The translations under genes were made by a program, and so were the position numbers. Below, one piece after another: positions 36,486 to 36,673 of a stretch of DNA of 36,673 nucleotides. The notes beneath the pieces are model-generated. The model had not been told where the DNA came from. It was given only the letters and a program-made list of their open reading frames with translations, and did no database searches. Within the stretch, counting starts at the first letter, position 1. Each line of letters begins with the position of its first letter. Source of the stretch: Escherichia coli. Its GTDB lineage: Bacteria; Pseudomonadota; Gammaproteobacteria; Enterobacterales; Enterobacteriaceae. Location: the NCBI RefSeq assembly GCF_003334315.1, contig NZ_QOWR01000049.1, one strand, 5' to 3'.

Positions 36486-36496
36486 TTGTATTGTGA

Positions 36497-36673
36497 TCGG
36501 TAAGCCGGATAAGGCGCTCGCGCCGCATCCGGCAACGGTGCCAGATGCCTGATGCGACGCTTGCGCGTCTTATCAGGCCTACAAATTCCCGCACCCTCCG
36601 TAGGCCGGATAAGGCGTTTACGCCGCATCCGGCAACGGTGCCGACTGCCTGATGCGACGCTTGCGCGTCTTAT
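36497..36673. repeat. Tandem REP/BIME repeats downstream of phnA (second copy truncated by the window end)
   Basis: Two near-identical ~80-bp units: gccggataaggcg...cgccgcatccggcaacggtgcc...gcctgatgcgacgcttgcgcgtcttatcaggcctac. Confidence 0.8.

Follow-up and report, generated by a model that had tools for sequence, protein, structure and literature searches.

The window analysed here is a stretch of 36,673 nucleotides of Escherichia coli DNA (contig NZ_QOWR01000049.1 of assembly GCF_003334315.1), the right-hand end of which carries the yjdM gene (legacy name phnA), encoding a 111 amino acid zinc-ribbon protein, followed by four REP palindromes (positions 36500–36673) arranged as two 100-bp units. 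The palindromes are extragenic, lying between the yjdM and yjdN coding sequences, and form the 3' UTR of the upstream gene yjdM. The first REP begins 14 nt from the yjdM stop codon and its stem begins at 36504, 18 nt after the stop. Read on the + strand, each unit is made up of a Y-type REP in which the tetranucleotide comes first, a 12-nt linker, a Z2-type REP that has CTAC last and a 17-nt C-rich linker. The window holds 1.77 units of the array, with the fourth REP interrupted at the window end. The features and their coordinates are listed in Table 1. RefSeq annotation for yjdM was taken from the K-12 locus (3051–3386), on which locus coordinate equals window coordinate minus 33099.

Table 1. 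Features at the right-hand end of the window (window coordinates)
Feature	Coordinates	Strand	Basis
Promoter-like site CCGACA-17-TATAAT, upstream of yjdM	36054..36082	+	Consensus scan, identical K-12 DNA (locus 2955–2983)
yjdM (legacy phnA) CDS, 111 aa, zinc-ribbon protein	36150..36485	+	ORF list; RefSeq annotation of identical DNA
REP 1, Y-type, tetranucleotide-first	36500..36534	+	Inverted repeat I4; 31/35 against published Y
12-nt linker ACGGTGCCAGAT between Y and Z2	36535..36546	+	Unit decomposition
REP 2, Z2-type, CTAC end (36579–36582)	36547..36582	+	Inverted repeat I6; 35/37 against published Z2
ATCAGGCCTAC, natural IS621 (IS110 family) target within Z2 REP	36572..36582	+	Exact-match scan
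17-nt C-rich inter-unit linker AAATTCCCGCACCCTCC (9 C, 1 G)	36583..36599	+	Composition
REP 3, Y-type, intact GTAG (36600–36603), loop TTTA	36600..36634	+	Inverted repeat I5; 35/35 against published Y
12-nt linker ACGGTGCCGACT	36635..36646	+	Unit decomposition
REP 4, Z2-type, interrupted at window end, loop CTTG	36647..36673	+	26/27 against Z2
Rfam RF02564 (naRNA4) match, complete	36503..36579	+	95 bits against gathering score 59.5
Rfam RF02564 match, 3' end missing	36603..36673	+	94 bits, model positions 1–71 of 77

The original prediction for this region was of two near-identical palindromic units following phnA and differing at a few positions. The repeat itself is real: a repeat search returned direct copies at 36497–36573 and 36597–36673, which are spaced by exactly 100 nt and share 90% identity across 77 nt. 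What has to be revised is the number of palindromes, since each copy contains two distinct imperfect palindromes (inverted repeats I4/I5 and I6, with arms of 14 nt and 86% complementarity), giving four REPs, two different ones per unit. That the copies differ at only a few positions holds as it was worded. Of the eight mismatches among the 77 positions (36499, 36503, 36517, 36519, 36520 and 36543–36545), the flank and the GTAG tetranucleotide account for one each, and the first hairpin's loop and the 12-nt linker for three each; the stems are free of them. The tetranucleotide mismatch reflects the degenerate GTAA of REP 1 (36500–36503), found in place of GTAG; the loop of this REP is CTCG. The motifs GCCGGATAAGGCG and GCCTGATGCGACGC occur eight and five times in the window, respectively, at up to two mismatches, against expectations of 0.94 and 0.40, and no shuffle equalled either count, placing the repeat motifs far above chance. 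Tandem Repeats Finder, run on 36300–36673, reported no tandem repeat because the window includes fewer than two full periods.

Two minus-strand ORFs of 132 and 87 amino acids (window 36230–36628 and 36331–36594) cross the REPs, and in genomes with seven-unit arrays the PGAP annotation includes a frameshifted minus-strand pseudogene for a 'hypothetical protein' (486–800 and 489–797 of two fetched loci). These ORFs and the pseudogene are repeat artefacts rather than genes, so that the array accounts for the spurious ORFs on the minus strand at the edge of the window.

The feature in the window is the first 1.77 units, that is the promoter-proximal end, of REP325, a BIME-2 array in the yjdM–yjdN intergenic region that is already known: it has a name, is represented by an Rfam family and has been the subject of experimental dissection. 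Positions 36100–36673 of the window are 100% identical to K-12 and to many other E. coli genomes, and the window tail corresponds to 4326397–4326211 of NC_000913.3 on the opposite strand. In K-12 the yjdM–yjdN region is 657 nt long and contains six 100-bp units, equivalent to 12 REPs. The feature table of NC_000913.3 gave CDSs only and the name REP325 comes from Qian et al. (2015, PMC4550694), who describe it as lying between yjdM (phnA) and the gene yjdN (phnB), and as comprising six repeats, termed 'Y-l-Z2' with the 12-nt linker as 'l', which are linked through 'U' motifs of identical sequence and give rise to the transcripts naRNA1–6. The 17-nt linker is the U motif of these authors; it is repeated five times in the K-12 array and sits where BIME-2 elements have the S linker. 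By position, the complete RF02564 match in the window is naRNA1 of REP325 and the match lacking its 3' end is naRNA2, the sequence of which is identical to that of naRNA4 (PMC4550694). The six K-12 units score 95–111 bits each with the same model, whilst the minus strand reaches 55.3 bits, under the gathering score.

The REP/BIME identity proposed in the original prediction was borne out by alignment to the REP consensus (Table 1). The Y, Z2 and Z1 references were taken from the Methods of PMC11208160, which print three E. coli REP sequences, with reference sequences also drawn from PMC2817692. The palindromes at 36547–36582 and 36647–36673 fit Z2 above Z1 (alignment score 33 versus 16), and the conserved tetranucleotide is present at the foot of the stem as CTAC in REP 2 and as GTAG in REP 3, being degenerate in the first REP. 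The order of the REPs, Y (GTAG first), Z2 (CTAC last), Y and Z2, is alternating and mutually inverted, which together with the short linkers and tandem repetition fits the definition of BIME-2 quoted from PMC3333891. Multiple tandem copies that vary in number between strains are likewise found (six in K-12, and 1, 2, 4, 5, 6 or 7 elsewhere), and the linkers are 12 and 17 nt in length. When the array was included in the query, matches were obtained in all 5426 of 5426 complete E. coli genomes, at a median of 31 places per genome, from which it follows that the sequence is a dispersed repeat. Missed in the original prediction were the pairing of Y with Z2 in each unit, the name REP325 (the source of naRNA1–6) and attenuation into the downstream gene.

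Two further REPs are found elsewhere in the window, at 17975–18009 and 30839–30868. The former, TGCCGGATGCGGCGTGAATTCCTTATCCGGTCTAC, is a solitary Y-type REP on the + strand (31/35 against published Y) in which the lower stem is weakened by substitutions. The latter is a Z-like REP located after the proP stop codon, and directly downstream of it lies an Rfam match to the enterobacterial sRNA STnc630 (30672–30837 on the minus strand), which scores 178.5 bits where the gathering score is 55. The minus-strand order proP, REP, STnc630 suggests that this RNA is derived from the proP 3' UTR.

When the isolated palindromes of the array were folded, the Y hairpin had a free energy of −21.0 kcal/mol (z = −4.3) and the Z2 hairpin one of −21.4 kcal/mol (z = −5.9). 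Adjacent inverted REPs can also be folded as one long hairpin (−43.4 and −44.7 kcal/mol, versus −42.4 kcal/mol for two local hairpins), and the minimum free energy (MFE) fold of the whole region pairs REPs across units, without local hairpins. Because the long and local hairpins are nearly isoenergetic, the global MFE fold is not to be taken as the structure in vivo. The sequence that follows the hairpins is CTACAAATTCCC or AACGGTGCC, with no U-tract, and a scan of the K-12 intergenic region (locus 3387–4043) for intrinsic terminators found no site in the array. An intrinsic (Rho-independent) terminator reading was rejected, as the hairpins are without a U-tract.

A promoter consensus scan of the identical K-12 DNA found no promoter-like site in the array. 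The site that the consensus scan places upstream of yjdM (Table 1) is likely to be the origin of the transcript entering the array. With a promoter-like site upstream of yjdM and neither promoter nor terminator inside the array, the latter should emerge in the transcript as the 3' UTR of yjdM, which is what Qian et al. also inferred (PMC4550694). In the yjdM leader there is, in addition, a terminator-like hairpin, CGGCAATCTGCCG with TTTTTT, at 36095–36113 (+ strand), within about 15 nt of the promoter-like site; both site and hairpin precede the yjdM ATG at 36150. The arrangement may represent an attenuator in the leader, or it may be coincidental.

Stabilisation of the upstream mRNA, which the original prediction ascribed to such elements in general, has been shown experimentally for REP325 itself (bioRxiv 10.64898/2026.03.23.713779). 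According to this preprint, the RNA ratio of yjdM to yjdN is 35 with REP325 and 1 once it is deleted (yjdM log2FC −1.74, yjdN +3.36), and with a yjdM–yjdN plasmid lacking the array, yjdM RNA is >160-fold lower. Expression of the array yields a ladder of truncated transcripts that end in hairpins. Under bicyclomycin, read-through goes up from 23% to 39%, an effect seen only when all 12 hairpins of the array are present; two to four hairpins alone show no Rho dependence, and yjdM is stabilised only with yjdN downstream. Northern blots did not detect endogenous yjdM RNA, the evidence coming largely from plasmid over-expression, and REP325 was not recovered in an in vitro Rho-binding screen. Deletion of REP325 also alters the growth phenotype, and REP325 is stable on plasmids (bioRxiv 10.64898/2026.03.23.713779).

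On this basis we think it very likely that the hairpins at this end of REP325 protect yjdM mRNA and attenuate yjdN, partly via Rho, and that the array changes copy number by whole units. Identity, architecture, hairpins, missing signals and copy variation were computed in the present work, whilst stabilisation, attenuation and partial Rho dependence are published. Transcription from the yjdM promoter would generate array RNA that is both the yjdM 3' UTR and intercistronic RNA, in which each REP would fold into a stable, GC-rich hairpin (about −21 kcal/mol) without a U-tract. The row of hairpins would block 3'-to-5' exonucleolytic decay, so protecting yjdM mRNA, and would stop or slow transcription ahead of yjdN, partly via Rho, in the manner of a leaky attenuator. 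The expected outcome is that yjdM is high and yjdN low, with the hairpin-ended RNA ladder (naRNA1–6) as a by-product. Recombination or slippage between the repeats would lead to 100-bp units being gained or lost whole, and hence to differences between strains, with a contribution from the REP-associated transposase TnpA-REP (RAYT) being possible.

The 17-nt linkers stand alone in the array as C-rich, single-stranded stretches and, on compositional grounds, could act as distributed Rho-loading segments. This would account for the need for several units, and for Rho dependence being confined to the full array. Unit number might then serve as a rapidly mutating rheostat of the yjdM:yjdN ratio, the linkers being G-poor and several of them needed per Rho hexamer, a proposal that we regard as speculative and more probably wrong than right. 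Were it true, transcription would continue into yjdN in strains with a single unit, but not in those with several.

The number of units was surveyed by joining the two unique flanks as a query and reading the span between them in 60 evenly spaced complete E. coli genomes. A single unit was present in 33 of these (CFT073 and ATCC 25922, for example), two units in five (mostly O157:H7), four units in four, five units in four (BL21) and six units in 12 (the K-12 lineage, one genome having IS1 upstream of yjdM); one genome was irregular, with a 239-nt intergenic region, and one gave a partial match only, with no unit number. Given that a single unit was found in 33 of the 60 sampled genomes, a large array is not required at the yjdM–yjdN locus. 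All changes in unit number are exact 100-bp steps, to 1, 2, 4, 5, 6 or 7 units, and when the fetched loci were decomposed they showed in-register gain or loss of whole units: unit 3 is doubled in the seven-unit arrays, for example, and unit 4 is absent from a five-unit array. The suggestion in the original prediction that such elements are hot spots for rearrangement is thus supported by the comparison of copy number across strains. The irregular allele, found in strain E600003 (locus 788–1026), has a 20-nt insertion between the yjdM stop codon and the first REP, and its 239-nt intergenic region contains a first Y with intact GTAG and then a decayed, partial second unit.

A second measure of unit number was provided by a 34-nt junction that includes the 17-nt linker, which was found in 2159 of the 5426 complete genomes at 1 to 8 places per genome. 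In MG1655 it is found at four places, equal to the number of exact-matching linkers in that strain's own array, and the match listed lies inside the array; the junction thus appears to be specific to the REP325 locus. Its absence from about 60% of complete genomes points to one unit at most in these. Nine of the junction places are on plasmids, and the maximum in any one genome is eight, which suggests an array of about nine units in some strains.

How quickly the array changes can be judged from genomes that share the window's flank. At least 12 complete genomes are 100% identical to window positions 29000–36500, and of four such flank-identical genomes that were fetched, three have seven units (389–1145 of each fetched locus) and one has five (389–945); in all four, the intergenic region starts with the exact window tail. 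Whole units are thus gained or lost faster than a single substitution arises in 7.5 kb of flank, assembly error being possible. The loop of the fourth REP in the window (CTTG) is the form seen in internal Z2 REPs, the last unit of the K-12, BL21 and O157 arrays having CTCG. From this internal-type loop and the flank-identical genomes, the array of the source strain very probably has at least three units and most likely five to seven.

The original prediction also took such elements to be hot spots for IS insertion. This is plausible to the extent that ATCAGGCCTAC, in the Z2 REP, is a natural target of IS621 and accounts for 74.5% of its genomic insertion sites (PMC11208160), but no IS was found inside the array at the locus of any fetched or sampled genome. 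The crfC–yjdM intergenic region of strain N921 carries an IS1A copy (locus 496–1193), with an intact six-unit array downstream. Because it lies between crfC and yjdM, upstream of the latter, this IS1 was rejected as an array insertion; its probable effect is to cut yjdM off from the native promoter region.

A rival view is that REP325 is essentially selfish or neutral, a REPIN-like, non-autonomous element that TnpA-REP/RAYT or slippage has amplified in situ and whose effects on yjdM and yjdN are incidental. We consider this to be a reasonable, if minority, possibility, and it is not exclusive of the regulatory reading. Variation from one to seven units in exact 100-bp steps, even where the flanking 7.5 kb is 100% identical, is in keeping with it, and REP325 has been predicted by RAREFAN to be a RAYT-associated REPIN. 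Binding and cleavage by TnpA-REP need GTAG and a stem mismatch (PMC3333891), and both are present here, with GTAG in the internal units and mismatches of AA/GC in the folded Y stem and GC/TT in the Z2 stem. The outermost REPs are degenerate (GTAA at the start and GCC or TTC at the end) whilst the internal REPs keep GTAG/CTAC. Degenerate ends are expected if the inner part alone was amplified, and the pattern of degenerate outer and intact inner tetranucleotides is consistent with an ancestral, single Y–Z2 pair having had its inner segment amplified. In vitro, TnpA-REP strand exchange assembles multiple REPs, cleavage and strand transfer being reported only in vitro (PMC3333891). On the other hand, homologous recombination or slippage between 100-bp repeats suffices for whole-unit changes, without a transposase, and the stems are perfectly conserved between units whereas loops and linkers vary. 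Deletion of the array alters the expression of both neighbours as well as growth, and REP325 is stable on plasmids (bioRxiv 10.64898/2026.03.23.713779), all of which counts against the selfish or neutral reading.

Two other proposals invoke effects on DNA topology or translation. By analogy with other elements of BIME-2 architecture, which the array shares, it might be a high-affinity DNA gyrase site that relieves positive supercoils between the yjdM and yjdN–phn units; as far as the work cited in PMC1475751 indicates, BIME-2 elements have a higher affinity for gyrase than BIME-1 and are cleaved by gyrase in vivo. Genes that respond to REP325 deletion are not, however, enriched for supercoiling-sensitive genes (bioRxiv 10.64898/2026.03.23.713779) and the reciprocal change in yjdM and yjdN RNA is accounted for at the RNA level, making this role unlikely. 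We judge no more favourably the candidate explanation that the first REP, being near the yjdM stop codon, stalls terminating ribosomes and lowers yjdM translation, under what is known as the 'REP within 15 nt' rule. The first REP does lie 14 nt after the TGA, and a mobilome preprint lists REP325 among the REPs inside the 15-nt limit of the upstream gene, but the base-paired stem, at 18 nt past the stop codon, is borderline; effects on translation were left open, with none reported, in the REP325 preprint (bioRxiv 10.64898/2026.03.23.713779).

The literature on REP325 is itself split between a nucleoid-condensing RNA and a local 3' UTR stabiliser and attenuator. In the former model the array is the naRNA1–6 gene cluster, the two-hairpin RNAs from which, with HU, bridge cruciform DNA at REPs chromosome-wide and so condense the nucleoid. 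Evidence for this includes HU binding by RIP-chip, a decondensed nucleoid in the REP325 deletion that is rescued by plasmid-borne naRNA4, 3C contacts between REPs that depend on HU and REP325, and AFM images of DNA condensed by HU plus naRNA4 (PMC4550694). The Rfam label for the sequence, naRNA4 or 'nucleoid-associated noncoding RNA 4', agrees with this model, the family name itself stemming from PMC4550694. Set against this, the later preprint (bioRxiv 10.64898/2026.03.23.713779), which shares an author, S. Adhya, with the 2015 paper that it disputes, reports no stable HU–cruciform–naRNA4 ternary complex, no change in nucleoid volume upon deletion or over-expression of REP325 and no REP–REP contacts by Hi-C, with REP325 RNA at about 1–2 copies per cell. 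Antisense naRNA4 was also active in the 2015 work, as were unrelated terminator cruciforms, pointing to low specificity (PMC4550694), and the presence of one unit at most in about 60% of complete genomes is hard to square with a core architectural role. We therefore regard chromosome-wide condensation by these RNAs as very improbable. Finally, the exact 100-nt period and the hairpin in each repeat might recall a CRISPR-like array, which was rejected, or a row of intrinsic terminators, but the 'spacers' are themselves repeated and nearly identical, the hairpins are without a T-run and there is no terminator site in the array, so that both can be dismissed with near certainty.

To the preferred reading, in which REP325 acts locally on yjdM and yjdN, the survey adds that unit number differs between genomes with an identical 7.5-kb upstream flank and that most strains have a single unit. 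This natural variation between strains amounts to a ready-made allelic series with which hairpin number can be related to termination and mRNA protection. Assemblies may collapse or expand at the locus.

Comparison with known systems places the window array closest to REP325 of K-12, with which it shares the locus, the position after yjdM and the order Y, 12 nt, Z2, 17 nt, and to which it is identical in sequence where present. The differences are that the last 5790 nt of the window has 13 mismatches with K-12 (NC_000913.3), so that the source strain is not K-12 itself, and that REP325 of K-12 has six units whereas the genomes matching the window flank have five or seven. With the BIME-2 family (Bachellier/Gilson), the array has in common alternating Y and Z2 REPs, short linkers and a tandem number that varies between strains; in REP type, orientation, linker length and tandem number no difference from the family was found, and the 17-nt linker junction appears to be confined to the REP325 locus in MG1655. 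Like the array, BIME-1 (or RIP) elements are built from inverted REPs, but they contain Z1, are present as a single copy and carry a long L linker that includes an IHF site, whereas the array has Z2 and linkers of 12 and 17 nt. A scan for the IHF consensus WATCAANNNNTTR found no such motif in the array, and a BIME-1/IHF reading was rejected on this ground, on the fit to Z2 over Z1 and on the short linkers.

With the REPIN/RAYT systems (REP doublets of Pseudomonas and E. coli that are mobilised by a domesticated IS200-like Y1 transposase), REP325 shares the inverted REP pair folding as one hairpin, although no RAYT gene adjoins REP325. The REP stabilisers of malE–malF and hisJ–hisQ offer a functional parallel: there, an intercistronic hairpin shields the upstream cistron from 3' exonucleases and so brings about differential expression within the operon. 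Protection of the upstream cistron and differential expression are shared, as reported for REP325. Whereas the malE–malF and hisJ–hisQ elements have two to three hairpins, REP325 has up to 12 or more, and adds to protection a partial, Rho-dependent attenuation that is seen only with the full array.
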